Source: Escherichia coli (GTDB taxonomy: Bacteria; Pseudomonadota; Gammaproteobacteria; Enterobacterales; Enterobacteriaceae). Taken from it: a stretch of DNA of 64,000 nt. Each line of letters begins with the position of its first letter. Positions within the stretch are counted from its first letter, which is position 1. The notes below the pieces were generated by a model, which had not been told where the DNA came from, made no database searches, and saw only the letters and a list, made by a program, of their open reading frames with translations. Below, in pieces: positions 3,663 through 49,630 of the stretch. The stretch is taken from NCBI RefSeq assembly GCF_050320075.1, contig NZ_CP190021.1; one strand, 5' to 3'. The position numbers were made by a program, and so were the translations under genes.

Positions 3663-3783
3663 GCATAGCTGACCTTGCCAGGCCTGCTTCGCCCTGTAGT
3701 GACGCGATCAACGGGCAGGAAACATTCCCCTTTCGTGCATGGCAGGCGCACACGAGTTCAGACAGCACGGTTTCCATGCGCGC
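3658..3783 (-). pseudogene. merR: merR 3' remnant (last ~41 codons of MerR)
   Basis: Minus-strand translation ends ...[39 protein letters not shown], matching the Tn21/Tn501 MerR C-terminus; upstream residues are unrelated. Confidence 0.75.
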
Positions 3784-4960
3784 CGTCGTGCGGAGATCAT
3801 CAGTCCGTTGGCGCAGTCGGAGACGGTCGGGCACGAAGCGGCCGATATGGCGGCTCAGGCGCTGGGCTTGTCTCGGCGCCAGGTATACGTTCTGATCCGG
3901 CGTGCCCGGCAAGGCAGCGGCCTCGTGACGGATCTGGTGCCCGGCCAGTCCGGTGGAGGTAAAGGTAAGGGGCGCTTGCCGGAACCGGTCGAGCGCGTCA
4001 TCCACGAGCTACTGCAAAAGCGGTTCCTGACCAAGCAGAAGCGCAGCCTAGCGGCCTTTCACCGCGAAGTCACTCAGGTGTGCAAGGCTCAAAAACTGCG
4101 AGTGCCGGCGCGCAATACCGTGGCCTTACGGATCGCTAGCCTTGACCCGCGCAAGGTCATCCGCCGGCGGGAAGGCCAGGATGCCGCTCGTGACCTACAA
4201 GGTGTGGGCGGCGAGCCTCCTGCCGTGACCGCGCCGCTGGAGCAGGTGCAGATAGACCATACGGTCATCGACCTGATCGTGGTCGATGACCGCGACCGGC
4301 AACCTATTGGCCGCCCGTACCTGACCCTCGCCATCGACGTGTTCACCCGCTGCGTGCTCGGCATGGTCGTCACGCTGGAAGCGCCGTCTGCCGTTTCGGT
4401 TGGCCTGTGCCTCGTGCATGTCGCCTGCGACAAGCGCCCTTGGCTGGAAGGACTGAACGTGGAAATGGATTGGCAGATGAGCGGCAAGCCCTTGCTGCTC
4501 TACCTAGACAACGCGGCCGAGTTCAAGAGCGAGGCCCTGCGCCGGGGTTGCGAGCAGCATGGCATCCGGCTGGACTATCGCCCGCTGGGACAGCCGCACT
4601 ATGGCGGCATCGTGGAACGGATCATCGGCACGGCGATGCAGATGATTCACGACGAACTGCCGGGAACGACCTTCTCCAACCCTGACCAGCGCGGCGACTA
4701 CGATTCCGAAAACAAGGCCGCCCTGACGCTGCGCGAGCTAGAGCGCTGGCTCACATTGGCGGTCGGCACCTACCACGGTTCGGTGCACAACGGCCTGCTC
4801 CAACCGCCGGCCGCGCGCTGGGCCGAGGCCGTGGCGCGTGTCGGCGTACCGGCCGTCGTCACACGCGCTACTTCGTTCCTGGTCGATTTTCTGCCGATCC
4901 TCCGGCGCACGCTGACCCGCACCGGCTTTGTCATCGACCACATCCACTACTACGCCGATG
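3781..4960 (+). pseudogene. tniA: tniA (Tn402/Tn5053-type transposase) fragment, 5' end replaced and 3' end cut by IS26
   Basis: ORF 3739-4977 matches TniA from memory from [19 protein letters not shown] onward; the last codons (GHCCK) are read from the IS26 terminal repeat. Confidence 0.7.
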
Positions 4961-41343: not shown

Positions 41344-42552
41344 TCAGAATTCGTTGTCTGTAGCAGGTGTGCGGGGCAGGATGTCGTCGGTGAGGGACCA
41401 GTTGGTCAGGATGCGGCGTTTCCGGTCGCGATCTGGTTGTGGTTCATCCCAGATAAGACCGAGACTGAGCATATCCCGCCGTAAGCCTTCCACCGCTTCA
41501 TCAACACAGGGTTCAGGGCAGGGAAGGCCAAAACGCATGGCTTCGGCCTCTGCACGTGCAACGGCCACCACGCCAGCGCCTTCAATAAATCCTTTCGTGG
41601 TATTGGCGCGGTGTAATGCATAAAACAGCGTCCTGTCCACGCCTTTCAGCCAAATCCAGTTGGGTGGCGTAAGCCGCAGGTCATGTGCATACAGCCAGAC
41701 CAGCCCACTGCGGACGTAGCGATGTTGTTTCAGCCATTGCTGTGCTCCGTTGCTTTTAATCACTCTCTGGAAAGCTGATTTGGCCAGTGAATAAACAGGG
41801 GTACAGAATTTCCCACTGTCCCGTTTGCTTTTAATTCTGCATGAGAGGTTCAGTGTATCCATGAGCTTTAATGCTGCCTTACGATCATCCAGGAAATACT
41901 GAAGACCAAATATGGCAAAGAGCGCTTTTTCATGTGGTGCCATGTCTTTCCAGGACGTTAAAGGTTTACCCAACTGGGCCATGAAACATCGTCTTGCAGC
42001 TGCAACATCGAGCTGCATATTGGTGATGAGAGTATGCTGCTCGACAAATGCTTCCGGGGTGAGAGCAACCCGCCGTTCAGGTCGTTTGCCACCATGAAAG
42101 AGTTTTTCCGGATCACCATCTGCCAGTACAGGGGCGATAGCAGGGGACAACGAAGCAAAGATGTATGGCAGGCGGGTAATATCTACTGGTCTGCGGGTGA
42201 AACGACTTTGTCCCGGATGTTGATACCACTCCCACAAACACCAGAGTGTCACAGGTAAGAGGTACATCCACAGAATACCTATGGTCTGCTCCATGACGTT
42301 AACCCACTGGCTATAGCTTATGTTGGCGGCGTTGTTACCGGTCATGGCAAGCAGGTTGTATCGTGGTGCTGCATAGTTATGAAATGGTCCCCAGTCAACC
42401 AGTCCCCATAAGGTATGAAGAATCAGGCAGCTGGCGTAAACCACTTCCGGCAAGAATAACCATATAACGAATAGCAGCAGGATAAGAAGGACACCAACAG
42501 CGCCCCATATCTGCATAGGATCTTCTGCGACAGGCTGTCGATTGTAAGACAT
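41344..42552 (-). CDS. trbA: TrbA, inner-membrane transfer protein (DotM-like)
   Basis: 402-aa ORF with hydrophobic N-terminus; position in trbABC. Confidence 0.85.
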   Translation of the reverse strand: MSYNRQPVAEDPMQIWGAVGVLLILLLFVIWLFLPEVVYASCLILHTLWGLVDWGPFHNYAAPRYNLLAMTGNNAANISYSQWVNVMEQTIGILWMYLLPVTLWCLWEWYQHPGQSRFTRRPVDITRLPYIFASLSPAIAPVLADGDPEKLFHGGKRPERRVALTPEAFVEQHTLITNMQLDVAAARRCFMAQLGKPLTSWKDMAPHEKALFAIFGLQYFLDDRKAALKLMDTLNLSCRIKSKRDSGKFCTPVYSLAKSAFQRVIKSNGAQQWLKQHRYVRSGLVWLYAHDLRLTPPNWIWLKGVDRTLFYALHRANTTKGFIEGAGVVAVARAEAEAMRFGLPCPEPCVDEAVEGLRRDMLSLGLIWDEPQPDRDRKRRILTNWSLTDDILPRTPATDNEF

Positions 42553-42785
42553 GACAAAGTCTCCATTTCTGGAATTTAAATCAAACGGAAAGGTTAAAAA
42601 TTTATTTGCAGGCGATAAGAGCTAACCAGAGGAATTAGCCGTGTGATAAAAGGATTGTTGCAGATACGAAAGTCGTTAGAATAGCTGCGGGCGCTTGAGG
42701 CTGTATGCCGAAAGCGTTTTGTGGACGGTATACAGCAGAAAGCCCCTGGAGATTTTTTTATCAATCAACCAAGGGCTCTACTGTA

Positions 42786-42989
42786 ATGCCTAGACAACAT
42801 TATAGTAGCCCGATAACCGCCGTAAGGCAATGGAGGGGCTATGATGCCACAGCGAACGTTTTTAATGATGTTAATCGTCATCTGTGTGACGATTCTGTGT
42901 TTTGTCTGGATGGTGAGGGATTCGCTTTGCGGACTCCGGCTCCAGCAGGGAAACACAGTGCTTGTGGCAACGTTAGCCTACGAAGTTAA
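42786..42989 (+). CDS. pndC: Possible PndC (mok-like overlapping reading frame); start uncertain
   Basis: Frame overlapping pndA in the track ORF 42705-42989, as in hok/mok systems. Confidence 0.35.
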   Translation: MPRQHYSSPITAVRQWRGYDATANVFNDVNRHLCDDSVFCLDGEGFALRTPAPAGKHSACGNVSLRS

Positions 42990-42996
42990 ACGTTAA
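42841..42996 (+). CDS. pndA: PndA, Hok-family membrane toxin (type I toxin-antitoxin)
   Basis: 51-aa ORF MMPQRTFLMMLIVICVTILCFVWMVRDSLCGLRLQQGNTVLVATLAYEVKR, read by hand (below track cutoff). Confidence 0.85.
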   Translation: MMPQRTFLMMLIVICVTILCFVWMVRDSLCGLRLQQGNTVLVATLAYEVKR

Positions 42997-43472
42997 CGGG
43001 CAACACGGCGGCAGGTTTTCTGCCGCCGCTTTGTTGCGAAGGCTGACCTCATTGCGCCCTTTCTTCTTCAATGAAGCGTATCCGGTATTGTTTCATTTCC
43101 CCTGAAGCCGATTAGCTCCAGCCGAATGCCTTTGCCATCCGGGGCCACGTTCTGCATTTCGCAGATACCACGTCGGGTCATGAGTGTGAAGGCTGTCATT
43201 GCCAGCATGGCTAACGCATTTTCCTCGCTTCCGCTGCGTTTCTCGAGAGCATCGGCAATTTATTCTATGCTCCCCACCTGAAAGCAAGAGTCGAATTCTT
43301 TACTCCACTTTTCTGACATCGGATTTTCTCTCTGTATTTATGGGTAGTTATCGAACTGAATGTGCCAGTTTTTTCAGGAGACGGCAAAGTTGAGATGGTT
43401 GGTTCTGATTCAAAGCATGAGTTTCCCCGGTGTGACGGGCATGTCGGGCGGATTTTGAGAAACAACAGATGT

Positions 43473-43503
43473 AAAAAAACCGACTGGTGAGGTCGGTTTT
43501 TTT
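43473..43503. terminator. Bidirectional rho-independent terminator candidate (A7-ACCGAC-loop-GTCGGT-T7)
   Basis: Read from sequence. Confidence 0.55.
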
Positions 43504-43526
43504 ACTGTTCCGTTACAGAGTGGGTG

Positions 43527-43747
43527 GCTCTGGTCGGAAAAGAACTGTCTATAACTGACCTGTAGATAGTACGTCTGGAATTATATTTCTGCAAGTACTG
43601 GATAAGTGTATACTCGGCATGTCAGCTCTGAGGCATGTTCTGTCCGGCATATTGTTCAGCGGGAAGAACAGGTTACAAGTCCTGGCCAAAACATCAGGTG
43701 GTGCTGGTTTTGGTGCTCTGGTCGGAGAAGAACTGTCTATAACTGAC
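43527..43747. repeat. Pair of 33-bp direct repeats (43527-43559 and 43715-43747, 32/33 identical)
   Basis: GCTCTGGTCGGARAAGAACTGTCTATAACTGAC read from sequence. Confidence 0.85.
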
Positions 43748-43979
43748 ACTATAGAAACCGTTGTGACAGGCAGTGTAAGAGCGAACAACGGGGTTCTTTC
43801 TCCAGTGATGGAGAAGCGGATGATTAATCTGTTAATCATCGTTCTCAGGGCAGTAGTTGCCGTTGCAAACGCGCTGATTGCTGTTCTGGAACTGATCCGG
43901 GAACTTATCGACTGATAAGCCTGGAAACGTAACTAAGGGCAGGGAGTTACCGCTTCCTGCCCTTTAACAAAAAGAGATC

Positions 43980-44156
43980 TCACGTTAAAAATTTGTACCC
44001 TTCTTTAACTTCCAGTGCCTGCTCCTTTGACTCAAACATCAGTCTTGTTTTCCCGGGAACGCCCCATGAAATGTATTCAACATCTATCCACCATTTTCCA
44101 TATTCTTTATATGGCCCGGATATTACTTTTTTGACAAAGGCATCTACCAGATTCAT
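43980..44156 (-). CDS. Hypothetical small protein in the AT-rich block upstream of excA
   Basis: 58-aa product from an internal ATG with AAAGGA RBS inside track ORF 43980-44264. Confidence 0.3.
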   Translation of the reverse strand: MNLVDAFVKKVISGPYKEYGKWWIDVEYISWGVPGKTRLMFESKEQALEVKEGYKFLT

Positions 44157-44541: not shown

Positions 44542-44757
44542 TTGATTATGAGCATGCCTCCTGCGATAGCTAATACTTTCTTGTTTGAAATGATGAAGAG
44601 TAAATCAAAAGACGTTACACTTGCTGCGATCTATGCATTAGGTGAAGGCCGGTGTCAGGCGGAGAACATTACTCGTGAATTACATAGATTGAGTCAAAGT
44701 GATGATATGGAAATAAAAATTGCTGCGATTAAAGCACTTGGTCGAATTTATCGGTAA
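44542..44757 (+). CDS. Hypothetical small protein
   Basis: 71-aa ORF in AT-rich region; weak RBS. Confidence 0.3.
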   Translation: MIMSMPPAIANTFLFEMMKSKSKDVTLAAIYALGEGRCQAENITRELHRLSQSDDMEIKIAAIKALGRIYR

Positions 44758-44828: not shown

Positions 44829-45491
44829 TTAAAATACTTCGGCTACAGGCATGCCTGCAATCTGCTCCCACTCCTTACGCTTCTCCTGAATCAGGCGAGG
44901 AAAGTCGACAGGGTAATCATATCCTCGACTTGCCATAGCGTGCATGGTGTTTGATGCGGTTTCTGGATGAGTACACCATGATGGAATAGGAACCATTGGC
45001 AGGTTGATGTATTTCGTATGAATTTCCAGTGTTTTGTCGTCTGTTACAGTACGAGTGAAATTATGAATGTCAAAACCGATAACATCCATAATGTTGCCTG
45101 GATAGATACGGACATACAACATTGTGCCATTTTTAAGGTCAATACCGAAATAAGCTCCCTGAGTTAAAGATAATCCTTCATACCCCTTCTCTGGAGAGTA
45201 GAAGCCTGACTCTTTTATTGTTTGTACAACTTTTCTTATCTTTTCTCTCCTTGTTTTTGCACGTGAATACATCCATATACCTGGCGCAAGTAATAAGAAC
45301 CAACTACCAAAAGTGACAACATAATCTTCAATGTTGTCACCATAATAACGAGAACTAAATAACATCAGTGTAGATGTCAGTGCGCAAAATAAAAAGAAAG
45401 GTATTCCTAAAAAGAAGTAAGCCTTCCTTAATACATAATATAACAACCACCAAGTTGGAAATCTGTCAGGTGTCTCTTTTTTATCTTTCAT
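44829..45491 (-). CDS. excA: Entry-exclusion protein ExcA
   Basis: 220-aa ORF with N-terminal TM helices, directly downstream of traY. Confidence 0.85.
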
Positions 45492-47814: not shown

Positions 47815-48399
47815 TCAGTATTGTTTACTGGTTACGGCAATTAACGTGGCATTGCGCCAGCCATTGCGGTCGTTCAGAAAATCACGGAAAGTCCCCTGCT
47901 CGGGTTCGCTGACTTTTCGTTCATGCAACTGCCAGAGGCGGTATGTAACAATCAGTGCTCTGGAAGCACAAAGAGCGACGCCTGACAGTATCAGCACAAG
48001 AGTGCTGATGGCGCGTACCAGAGTCGTAAGAGGTAATGAAGAGGCGGCAAAGAGCATACCACTGAGAAACAAAGCGATGGCCAGCAGACTCCAGCAACAG
48101 AATCGCCATACTGTTCTGCGCCGGCGGAAACGACGATCCAGATCGTCTACTGACATATGGCTGGCCTGCAGAGCTTCTTCCCACGTGAGGTGGAGTTGCG
48201 CCTTTTTATTATTTACCTGACGAAATCTGTCCAGTCTGCGTTTTTGTTGTTCCAGCATATGCTGTACAGAATTCGTTATCAGGCGAGTCTCCATCAGAGG
48301 AACAAAAATGTTAATAATCCCCCGGGTGGCTATGCGGGTTATGGATGGTGATTTTTTGACGTTTTTCGTCTGGTCTGAATTTTCCGGTAACTTATTCAT
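47815..48399 (-). CDS. traX: TraX transfer protein
   Basis: 194-aa ORF; gene order. Confidence 0.75.
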   Translation of the reverse strand: MNKLPENSDQTKNVKKSPSITRIATRGIINIFVPLMETRLITNSVQHMLEQQKRRLDRFRQVNNKKAQLHLTWEEALQASHMSVDDLDRRFRRRRTVWRFCCWSLLAIALFLSGMLFAASSLPLTTLVRAISTLVLILSGVALCASRALIVTYRLWQLHERKVSEPEQGTFRDFLNDRNGWRNATLIAVTSKQY

Positions 48400-48427: not shown

Positions 48428-49630
48428 TCAACGTGCGTTTGCCTGATTGATTGTTTTCTCAAGGCTACCGAGTTGTTTTTCATAATACTGGCGGGCGGTC
48501 AGAGCCAGTTGCTGTCCAGAGATGACATTACCCTGGCGGATCTGTTCTTTCAGGTCGTTCAGTTGCCAGTTCATTTGCGCAGTGATTCTTACCAGTTCAC
48601 GGAGCAGGTTATCTCCCTGCATTTCCTGTAAATCCACCAGGTATGCTGTGTTGGCGTAGCGCCGGCCAGCCTCAAAAGCTTCAAACTCACGGGTACTCAT
48701 ATATCCCCGTGCTTTTGCTTCTGGTGAAGCCACCTGGTCGAAGTAAGCGGCCGCTGAGTCTGACTGCAGTGTTTCAGCCAGTGCTTTACGTGTGCTTTCA
48801 TTAGGCGTGCTGTCAGCAATCAGCGTCAGTTGGGGATTCGACGCAGAATCAATGATGCCGTTGTATTCGTTCTGGAGTCCGACGTAGGTTCGCCCACTCT
48901 GGGTATTCACTTCTCCTTTACCCAGAGCACGACCGGCAGAGGGGCGGGAAGTGTTTTTCATGTAAGCCGTCGCTGCATCTATTTGCTTCTGATCCCATGT
49001 CAGTGCTGCAGGTGTGTCCGCTGTACCTGCGCCGTGGTAAATCGAGCGTACCTGACTGTCTCCACCTGGTATTTCGCCCACAGAAGGACAAACGGCGGTT
49101 CCTCCAAAACGTGCATATTCTGCTTCTGTACAGTAACTGGCGTGTATGGCCGCGCCATCATAAGCTTCCCGCACGGGAGAGTTTGCTGCGCTGGCCAGAC
49201 GGTCGCGGATGCTACGGTTGCTCACACCGCCACCTTTACTGAGTTTTGAGGCTGCGGATGCTGAGGCACTTTTGCTTTCTGTTGCAATCCCTGATGCGGA
49301 TTCACTGCAGATGGAGTCTGGCACGGTGAAGCTTTTCCGTGCCTCCTCGAGGCGCTGAGTTTCATTACTGAAAATCATCTGCTGACGTGTCGCCTGTCCG
49401 TTCTGGGCAATGACACTTGCCAGCTTTTCAGAGTTCTGATTGATAGCGGTACCCGTGGCTGTCTGGGTACTCAGTATGTTGCCAAGGACATCTTTGATGG
49501 CTTCCATTCTGGGGATGACCTGCTCTTCAACAGGCCGGCTGGCGACGACGGTGACTGAATAAGCATGAGCCTGGCATGCCGTTCCACTCAGGGTGGCTAT
49601 AAGGGCTGCGAGTAATGTTTTTCTTTGCAT
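48428..49630 (-). CDS. traW: TraW lipoprotein
   Basis: 400-aa ORF with signal peptide and lipobox-like LSGTAC. Confidence 0.8.
   Translation of the reverse strand: MQRKTLLAALIATLSGTACQAHAYSVTVVASRPVEEQVIPRMEAIKDVLGNILSTQTATGTAINQNSEKLASVIAQNGQATRQQMIFSNETQRLEEARKSFTVPDSICSESASGIATESKSASASAASKLSKGGGVSNRSIRDRLASAANSPVREAYDGAAIHASYCTEAEYARFGGTAVCPSVGEIPGGDSQVRSIYHGAGTADTPAALTWDQKQIDAATAYMKNTSRPSAGRALGKGEVNTQSGRTYVGLQNEYNGIIDSASNPQLTLIADSTPNESTRKALAETLQSDSAAAYFDQVASPEAKARGYMSTREFEAFEAGRRYANTAYLVDLQEMQGDNLLRELVRITAQMNWQLNDLKEQIRQGNVISGQQLALTARQYYEKQLGSLEKTINQANAR

Follow-up and report, generated by a model that had tools for sequence, protein, structure and literature searches.

Known toxin-antitoxin systems of the dinQ-agrB family

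The dinQ/agrB pair of the Escherichia coli K-12 chromosome has been characterised in some depth (PMC3567139, PMC5066626); its family was described in 2013 and 2016, the dql family and the structure of its leader being described in the latter year (PMC5066626). In the published model, the primary dinQ transcript is inert: its 5' end occupies the AgrB-target region by pairing (stem S1), and its Shine-Dalgarno (SD) sequence is held in a hairpin (PMC5066626). Loss of 43 nt from the 5' end frees an element 2, which pairs with the anti-SD element so that the SD opens (PMC5066626), and binding of AgrB to the dinQ target re-closes the SD and creates a substrate for RNase III (PMC5066626). Two plasmid-borne members have been studied: for dqlB-agrB of pOXA-48 (IncL), toxicity, rescue by agrB and addiction were shown, and a compensatory 4-nt mutation served to test the pairing (Baffert et al. 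2025, PMC12365149), while for agrB-dqlB of the IncX3 plasmid pOXA-484, a 2025 study demonstrated toxicity, its neutralisation and plasmid stabilisation (PMC12317039). A 2025 survey found dqlB in 67.4% of IncI1 plasmids (PMC12365149). The small RNA (sRNA) family is already represented in Rfam, and the toxin family in NCBIfam and PGAP.

Here we describe a locus between pnd and excA in a stretch of 64,000 nucleotides of E. coli DNA (hereafter the window). We consider it very probable that this locus belongs to the dinQ-agrB family, as a complete dqlB/agrB type I toxin-antitoxin module carried by an IncI1-type conjugative plasmid beside pnd. Direct support for this comes from the homology of both genes, the duplex between their RNAs, its covariation and the predicted folds. 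Judged from its sequence, the module is functional and already known; by analogy with the studied members, we infer that the IncI1 dqlB product is toxic, that the sRNA neutralises it by pairing, and that the pair stabilises the plasmid.

The locus is co-linear with K-12 agrB-dinQ in promoter geometry, a/a' pairing, SD and terminator. Both have divergent, non-overlapping genes, an sRNA whose 5' end is complementary to the toxin 5' UTR over about 31-32 nt, a UTR laid out as a/a', S1 lock, SL2 and SL4 blocks and SD hairpin, a homologous single-helix peptide with the LELIR motif, and a homologous terminator. The K-12 counterpart of the repeated element was named the 'agrAB repeat' by Weel-Sneve et al. 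2013 (PMC3567139). The two loci differ in that the window has one sRNA gene, without agrA, whereas the K-12 dinQ locus has two, and in the toxin, which has 31 aa and an ATG start in the window as against 27 aa and a GTG start in DinQ. The recognition sequences also differ: the window sRNA is predicted to bind the K-12 dinQ target at -26 kcal/mol, as against -62 kcal/mol for its own. As the window locus lies on a plasmid, unlike the chromosomal dinQ, a part in addiction rather than an SOS role is implied.

The pOXA-48 locus agrees with the window in family and gene order; its sRNA-UTR complementarity spans 35 nt, its 31-aa DqlB is about 25/31 identical to that of the window by our count, and an S1 lock and SD hairpin are predicted in its full-length UTR as in the window. 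It differs in recognition sequence, plasmid backbone and neighbours (repA-trbC as against pnd-excA). The Rfam AgrB model gave no match at E<=0.1 on the validated pOXA-48 agrB (NC_019154, segment L015 8330-8430); the Rfam annotation therefore misses part of this sRNA family. The direct-repeat signature of pOXA-48 is obvious by eye all the same. The IncX3 pOXA-484 locus resembles the window in having a plasmid-borne DqlB with an adjoining Rfam-detectable AgrB, and differs in incompatibility group, in recognition sequence and in the DqlB C-terminus (…IRQFID as against …IRELID in the window). The IncX4 and IncX5 relatives share the architecture of the window locus.

More distant parallels are found in tisB/istR-1, zorO/orzO and shoB/ohsC, where a divergent upstream sRNA likewise targets a short stretch within a long 5' UTR and the mRNA as first transcribed is likewise inert before 5' processing. 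Their toxins are without sequence homology to DqlB, and the window locus lies outside these families. The neighbouring pnd (42689-42996) is also a type I plasmid addiction system that combines a small membrane toxin with an antisense RNA, of unrelated sequence. Its antisense RNA is cis-encoded and overlaps the leader, and a direct repeat is therefore unnecessary there.

A pair of direct repeats between pnd and excA

By their predicted gene content, the surroundings of the locus are those of an IncI1-type transfer region, and the placement between pnd (42689-42996) and excA given in the preliminary description is accurate. The neighbours are as follows:

41344-42552, minus strand: trbA
42689-42846: sok/pndB RNA (Rfam, 134 bits)
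42841-42996: pndA
44829-45491, minus strand: excA, followed by traY

The pnd module, of hok/sok type, and dqlB/agrB are unrelated type I modules that adjoin each other at 42689-42996 and 43471-43968, between trbA and excA. Two adjoining RNA-controlled addiction modules on an IncI1-type plasmid bear on plasmid persistence and on plasmid-curing strategies.

The most conspicuous feature of the region is a pair of 33-nt direct repeats, at 43527-43559 (GCTCTGGTCGGAAAAGAACTGTCTATAACTGAC) and 43715-43747, whose coordinates had been given exactly when they were first noticed. The copies are identical at 32/33 positions, the sole mismatch being an A->G change from copy 1 to copy 2 at repeat position 13; they start 188 bp apart and are separated by 155 bp. 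No third copy with <=3 mismatches occurs in the 64-kb window, and dinucleotide shuffles yielded no such repeat (0/100). Internal dyad symmetry was looked for within the 33-nt repeat and is absent. Close to copy 1 lies a hairpin (43471-43505) with a perfect 14-bp stem, a 7-nt loop and A7 and T7 on its flanks, which looks like a terminator on both strands. The module to which we assign these elements consists of the following parts, of which those of the leader and promoters are predictions:

43471..43558, minus strand (RNA running 43558 -> 43471): AgrB-like sRNA gene, 88 nt (Rfam RF02891)
43471..43505, minus strand: sRNA Rho-independent terminator, a perfect 14-bp stem followed by U7, which falls on the terminator stem in the alignment to the Rfam AgrB consensus
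43527..43559, minus strand: repeat copy 1, whose complement is sRNA nt 1-32, the antisense recognition region
43566..43594, minus strand: predicted sRNA promoter, with -35 TTGCAG (43594-43589), a 17-nt spacer, -10 TACTAT (43571-43566) and 7 nt to 43558
43609..43614, plus strand: predicted dqlB promoter -10 TATACT, 6 nt 5' of the predicted +1 G43621
43621..43968, plus strand: predicted dqlB mRNA of about 348 nt, co-linear with the dinQ transcript of K-12 and made up of a 199-nt 5' UTR, the 31-codon ORF and a terminator
43715..43747, plus strand: repeat copy 2 (mRNA nt 95-127), predicted sRNA target and 3' strand of the S1 lock
43720-43733, plus strand: element 2, GGTCGGAGAAGAAC, inside copy 2, which can pair with the anti-SD element
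43792-43804, plus strand: anti-SD element 3, GGTTCTTTCTCCA, forming with the SD a hairpin that spans 43792..43813
43820..43915, plus strand: dqlB, encoding a 31-aa DinQ-like type I toxin, MINLLIIVLRAVVAVANALIAVLELIRELID (NCBIfam NF041473)
43935..43964, plus strand: hairpin 3' of dqlB, probable mRNA terminator, homologous to the dinQ terminator stem-loop

The predicted toxin gene and antitoxin sRNA

The predicted ORFs here had been called weak in the preliminary description, a judgement that does not hold for the strongly conserved 31-codon toxin ORF at 43820-43915, which occupies the 3' end of a 98-codon ORF. Its product matches the NF041473 DinQ_rel model, an equivalog, over profile positions 1-31/31 with 67.2 bits against a cut-off of 35, whereas the model for DinQ proper gives 19.6 bits, under its cut-off of 30. 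In plasmids 100% identical over 43300-44000 (a 701-bp query), PGAP annotates dqlB at the same site. An SD sequence, GGAG (43810-43813), lies 6 nt 5' of the ATG at 43820, and the 31-aa peptide is near-invariant across 8 variant loci and across incompatibility groups. By homology, this hydrophobic 31-residue peptide would damage the inner membrane. We rejected the 98-codon ORF (43619-43915) as a protein, conservation being confined to its last 31 codons; an in-frame stop lies 8-12 codons 5' of the dqlB ATG in 5/8 variant loci, and the placement of the SD before the internal ATG at 43820 also counts against the longer reading. As dqlB had been overlooked, so had the role of repeat copy 2 as an mRNA target site.

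In a scan with all Rfam covariance models, RF02891 (AgrB) matched with 53.7 bits against a gathering score of 40, over model positions 1-84/84; AgrB and sok are the two gathering-level Rfam matches in the window. As the full-length AgrB match lies on the minus strand, we assign the hairpin at 43471-43505, which had been described as a bidirectional terminator, to the sRNA as its Rho-independent terminator. In the predicted fold of the 88-nt RNA (-27 kcal/mol; z = -5.97 against shuffles), the first 19 nt form a single-stranded tail, which is followed by an internal stem-loop and the terminator. Thus, of the readings offered for the repeats at the outset, that of a small RNA locus is borne out by the Rfam match and the fold, with copy 1 as the 5' antisense region. 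The OrzO-P family was considered for this RNA and rejected (33.8 bits against a gathering score of 60, mostly over the terminator). The sRNA gene is absent from the plasmid records examined, and the PLSDB gene table that we used omits RNA genes; annotating the sRNA at 43471-43558 (minus strand) is therefore a small but real improvement, and the sole local addition made here. Literature searches for AgrB expression data for IncI1, ColIb-P9 or pCol1B9 returned no match.

The two RNAs are joined by the repeat. Nucleotides 1-32 of the sRNA pair with 43715-43746 without gaps or mismatches, through 31 Watson-Crick pairs and 1 G:U pair, at -62 kcal/mol, and the single difference between the repeats becomes a U:G wobble in the RNA duplex. 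The sRNA target lies 73 nt 5' of the dqlB ATG. As the sRNA and its target gene lie on opposite strands and do not overlap, the complementarity of the RNAs appears in the DNA as a direct repeat. Once they are read as marking a type I toxin-antitoxin pair encoded in trans, the repeats lose their apparent oddity, and we would advise the same reading wherever a divergent 'direct repeat plus terminator' is found beside a tiny hydrophobic ORF.

Predicted divergent promoters between the repeats

Going by homology to K-12 and to the variant loci, the 155-bp interval holds a pair of divergent promoters and the beginning of the toxin mRNA. A consensus promoter scan called neither promoter at threshold, owing to weak -35 or -10 matches in both; both were therefore placed by homology, and it is on this basis that we infer the IncI1 transcription start sites. 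The geometry of the sRNA promoter agrees with that of K-12 agrB (TTGCAA-17-TAGTAT-7-+1) and of the plasmid variants. For dqlB, the -35 is weak and overlaps the -35 of the sRNA; the placement of its -10 is homologous to TATAAT-N6-GTTAGC in the variants, and G43621 aligns with the mapped +1 of dinQ (GTCAGC in the window, GTTAGC in dinQ; PMC5066626). With start sites so placed, 62 bp separate the sRNA 5' end at 43558 from the predicted mRNA start at ~43621, and the two transcripts are divergent and non-overlapping.

A LexA box of the form CTG-N10-CAG is absent from the dqlB promoter, whereas the K-12 dinQ control has one at -15. We thus rejected dinQ-like SOS control, and the plasmid dqlB is probably not SOS-controlled at its promoter; its regulation would in this respect differ from that of the best-studied member, the chromosomal dinQ. 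The missing promoter box and the DinQ score below cut-off are the grounds on which we file the locus as dqlB rather than dinQ. The only CTG-N10-CAG within 43400-43900 is at 43682-43697 (CTGGCCAAAACATCAG), in the transcribed leader and within the conserved SL2 stem-loop. The homologous spot has been listed as a putative LexA box for dqlB of the IncI1 plasmid pTF2 (HI 11.64; PMC12211044); its conservation is more simply accounted for by RNA structure than by LexA binding.

Leader folding and the proposed mechanism

In the minimum free energy (MFE) fold of the full-length mRNA, nt 1-28 pair with nt 101-127 to form the long stem S1, and a closed hairpin takes up all of the SD (nt 190-193), whose unpaired probability is 0.00. 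Elements 1-4 are recognisable in the window leader, with compensatory changes relative to dinQ; for instance, the a/a' pair co-varies, being GUCAG/CUGAC in the window and GUUAG/CUAAC in dinQ, with GU(C/U)AG...CU(G/A)AC as the pattern across loci. A closed SD hairpin is predicted by MFE in 9/9 loci, and pairing between the 5' end and the target in 8/9, the set including the SHAPE-validated dinQ and the validated pOXA-48 locus. Truncation of the 5' end raises the SD-unpaired probability from 0.00 to about 0.1-0.2 in the window and from about 0.1 to about 0.3 in the dinQ control, which is a weak thermodynamic signal.

We propose that an 88-nt AgrB-like sRNA would be made constitutively from the minus strand, from 43558 to 43471, and that a divergent promoter would yield the dqlB mRNA from about 43621. 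As in dinQ and pOXA-48, the full-length mRNA would be translationally inert, its 5' end being folded onto repeat copy 2 (S1) and its SD held in the hairpin. Processing of the 5' end would free copy 2, and with it element 2, to pair with the anti-SD element, and the SD would open. The single-stranded 5' tail of the sRNA would bind copy 2 over 32 bp, so that the SD stays closed and a substrate for RNase III is formed. Upon loss of the plasmid, the labile sRNA would decay ahead of the stable mRNA and DqlB would be made, killing or arresting the plasmid-free cell (post-segregational killing).

Retention and loss of the module in related plasmids

We made the R64 and ColIb-P9 comparison suggested when the repeats were first noticed. 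R64 (NC_005014) has one AgrB-like gene and dqlB, as in the window, with a different recognition sequence. In ColIb-P9 (NC_002122) there are three AgrB-like genes and dqlB is missing, a deletion having removed the toxin transcription unit from just 3' of its promoter to past its terminator. The ColIb-P9 genes, at 48309-48396, 48682-48769 and 48928-49015 of NC_002122, lie as follows in segment L013:

3310-3397, minus strand: AgrB-like gene
3683-3770, minus strand: AgrB-like gene
3929-4016, minus strand: AgrB-like gene

Like ColIb-P9, pOW967977-P2 (L008) has three AgrB-like genes, of three recognition types, without dqlB. The ETEC1720 plasmid 'unnamed7' has the three AgrB-like genes of the ColIb-P9 type together with dqlB. 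At a coverage of at least 80%, the AgrB-like array is present in about 315 PLSDB records. In the ColIb-P9-type relatives, we also observed a second, partial sok-like element (67.5 bits; L013 3510-3651) between AgrB-like copies, with no annotated Hok ORF.

A different kind of loss is seen in pAVS0968-C (NZ_CP124395; segment L005 1010-1070 against window 43511-43698), which lacks exactly the 188 bp between the repeats and retains one hybrid copy; the deletion has cost it the two promoters together with the first half of the leader of dqlB. Judged by what is missing, pAVS0968-C is a clean case of repeat recombination inactivating the module. The repeats can thus recombine, while the module of the window is intact.

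Such decay in relatives, comprising the pAVS0968-C deletion and the loss of dqlB from ColIb-P9 and pOW967977-P2, might be extended to the window itself, so that the locus would be an inactive remnant of dqlB/agrB that has ceased to work on this plasmid, whether as a toxin-antitoxin pair or for addiction; that both promoters fall under the threshold of the consensus scan would fit such a state. We judge this improbable, because every element is intact in the window, namely the ORF with its SD and ATG, both terminators, both promoters at conserved positions and the 32/32 pairing. Moreover, 701 PLSDB plasmids cover at least 80% of 43300-44000, 526 records carry this 701-bp region at identities of at least 99%, and the peptide is conserved across incompatibility groups.

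Covariation of the sRNA and its target

We fetched variants of the locus from IncI1, IncI-gamma/K1, IncK2/Z, IncX4, IncX5 and IncF plasmids, from R64, ColIb-P9 and pOXA-48, and from the K-12 chromosome; by the Rfam model, an AgrB-like RNA lies 5' of dqlB in all the fetched loci but pOXA-48. For covariation, sRNA nt 1-32 were joined to the target in an alignment of 7 distinct loci (IncI1, IncK, IncX4, IncF and the K-12 chromosome). The recognition region is strongly divergent among loci, and its two copies change together: in this 7-locus alignment, 95.5% of the intermolecular cells are paired, and 15/32 intermolecular pairs have changes on both sides. None of the column shuffles (0/500) equalled the observed pairing and covariation, and sliding the partners by 1-3 columns lowered the pairing to 36-46%. 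In a cross-energy matrix, the cognate sRNA-target duplex is the most stable in nearly every row and column, the exception being the closely related IncX/IncF group. That the copies co-vary as complementary RNA argues that selection acts on the RNA duplex rather than on a DNA motif. A contribution of gene conversion to this covariation is possible in principle.

The covariation, which includes G:U-compatible differences, also tells against the duplicated protein-binding site of the preliminary description, a reading that we framed as operator- or iteron-like sites for a DNA-binding protein around a regulatory region. The near-identical 33-bp pair does flank 155 bp that hold two promoters. However, copy 1 lies within an RNA gene matched by a covariance model and copy 2 within a conserved 5' UTR; the sequence is free to vary, with G:U tolerated, as long as the RNA complementarity holds, which is unexpected for the site of a conserved protein; the repeat is devoid of dyad symmetry; and the equivalent pairing in pOXA-48 has been proven through compensatory mutations (PMC12365149). 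We accordingly attach almost no probability to protein-binding sites. Just as improbable is the recombination scar that had also been suggested, or a duplication scar, in either case without function, for example a target-site-like or slipped duplication: the repeats are indeed recombinogenic, and pAVS0968-C is an exact single-copy deletion product, but all family members examined, that of the E. coli chromosome among them, have the two-copy layout with different sequences, and the interval between the copies holds promoters and an mRNA leader rather than features of a mobile element.

Specificity types and toxin-less AgrB arrays

With the repeats taken as the recognition sequences of a toxin-antitoxin pair, at least three co-varying sRNA/target types circulate at the same site, namely those of the window, of R64 and of pESI/ETEC1720. 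The members of the array show near complementarity to these types in turn: copy 1 to the dqlB target of the window, copy 2 to that of R64 and copy 3 to the pESI/ETEC1720 target. Copy 1 of the ColIb-P9 array forms 26 Watson-Crick pairs, 5 G:U pairs and 1 mismatch with the window target, at -46.7 kcal/mol; for comparison, the non-functional AgrA on dinQ gives -42.3 kcal/mol. These values being close, cross-neutralisation of the window dqlB by the ColIb-P9 sRNA cannot be claimed.

For the genes of the toxin-less arrays, the possibilities are orphan antitoxins that act against addiction and decaying paralogues like K-12 agrA. A broader and rather unlikely idea, which we put forward as speculation, is that the 33-nt repeat represents one 'specificity allele' in a competition code of IncI-type plasmids, with the toxin-less arrays as anti-addiction devices. 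If this were so, a toxin-less array would let a plasmid displace incompatible dqlB-bearing rivals while the host is spared.

Neighbouring hypothetical genes

A conserved 83-codon hypothetical gene (43068-43319, minus strand; WP_001291965 in relatives) lies between pnd and the sRNA. At window position 43262 it has a nonsense change at codon 20 (GAA->TAA; C->A on the plus strand), which is one of only two differences from pSS2017-2b across 5.7 kb. The gene is probably a pseudogene in the window, or else 43262 is a sequencing error. On the other side of the module, a conserved 58-codon hypothetical gene (43980-44156, minus strand) is convergent with dqlB, and the terminator hairpin at 43935-43964 is common to both. 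Further along, a 69-codon ORF at 44548-44757 (plus strand) is a 'HEAT repeat domain' ORF. Some relatives, pOW967977-P2 among them, have hha in this place instead.
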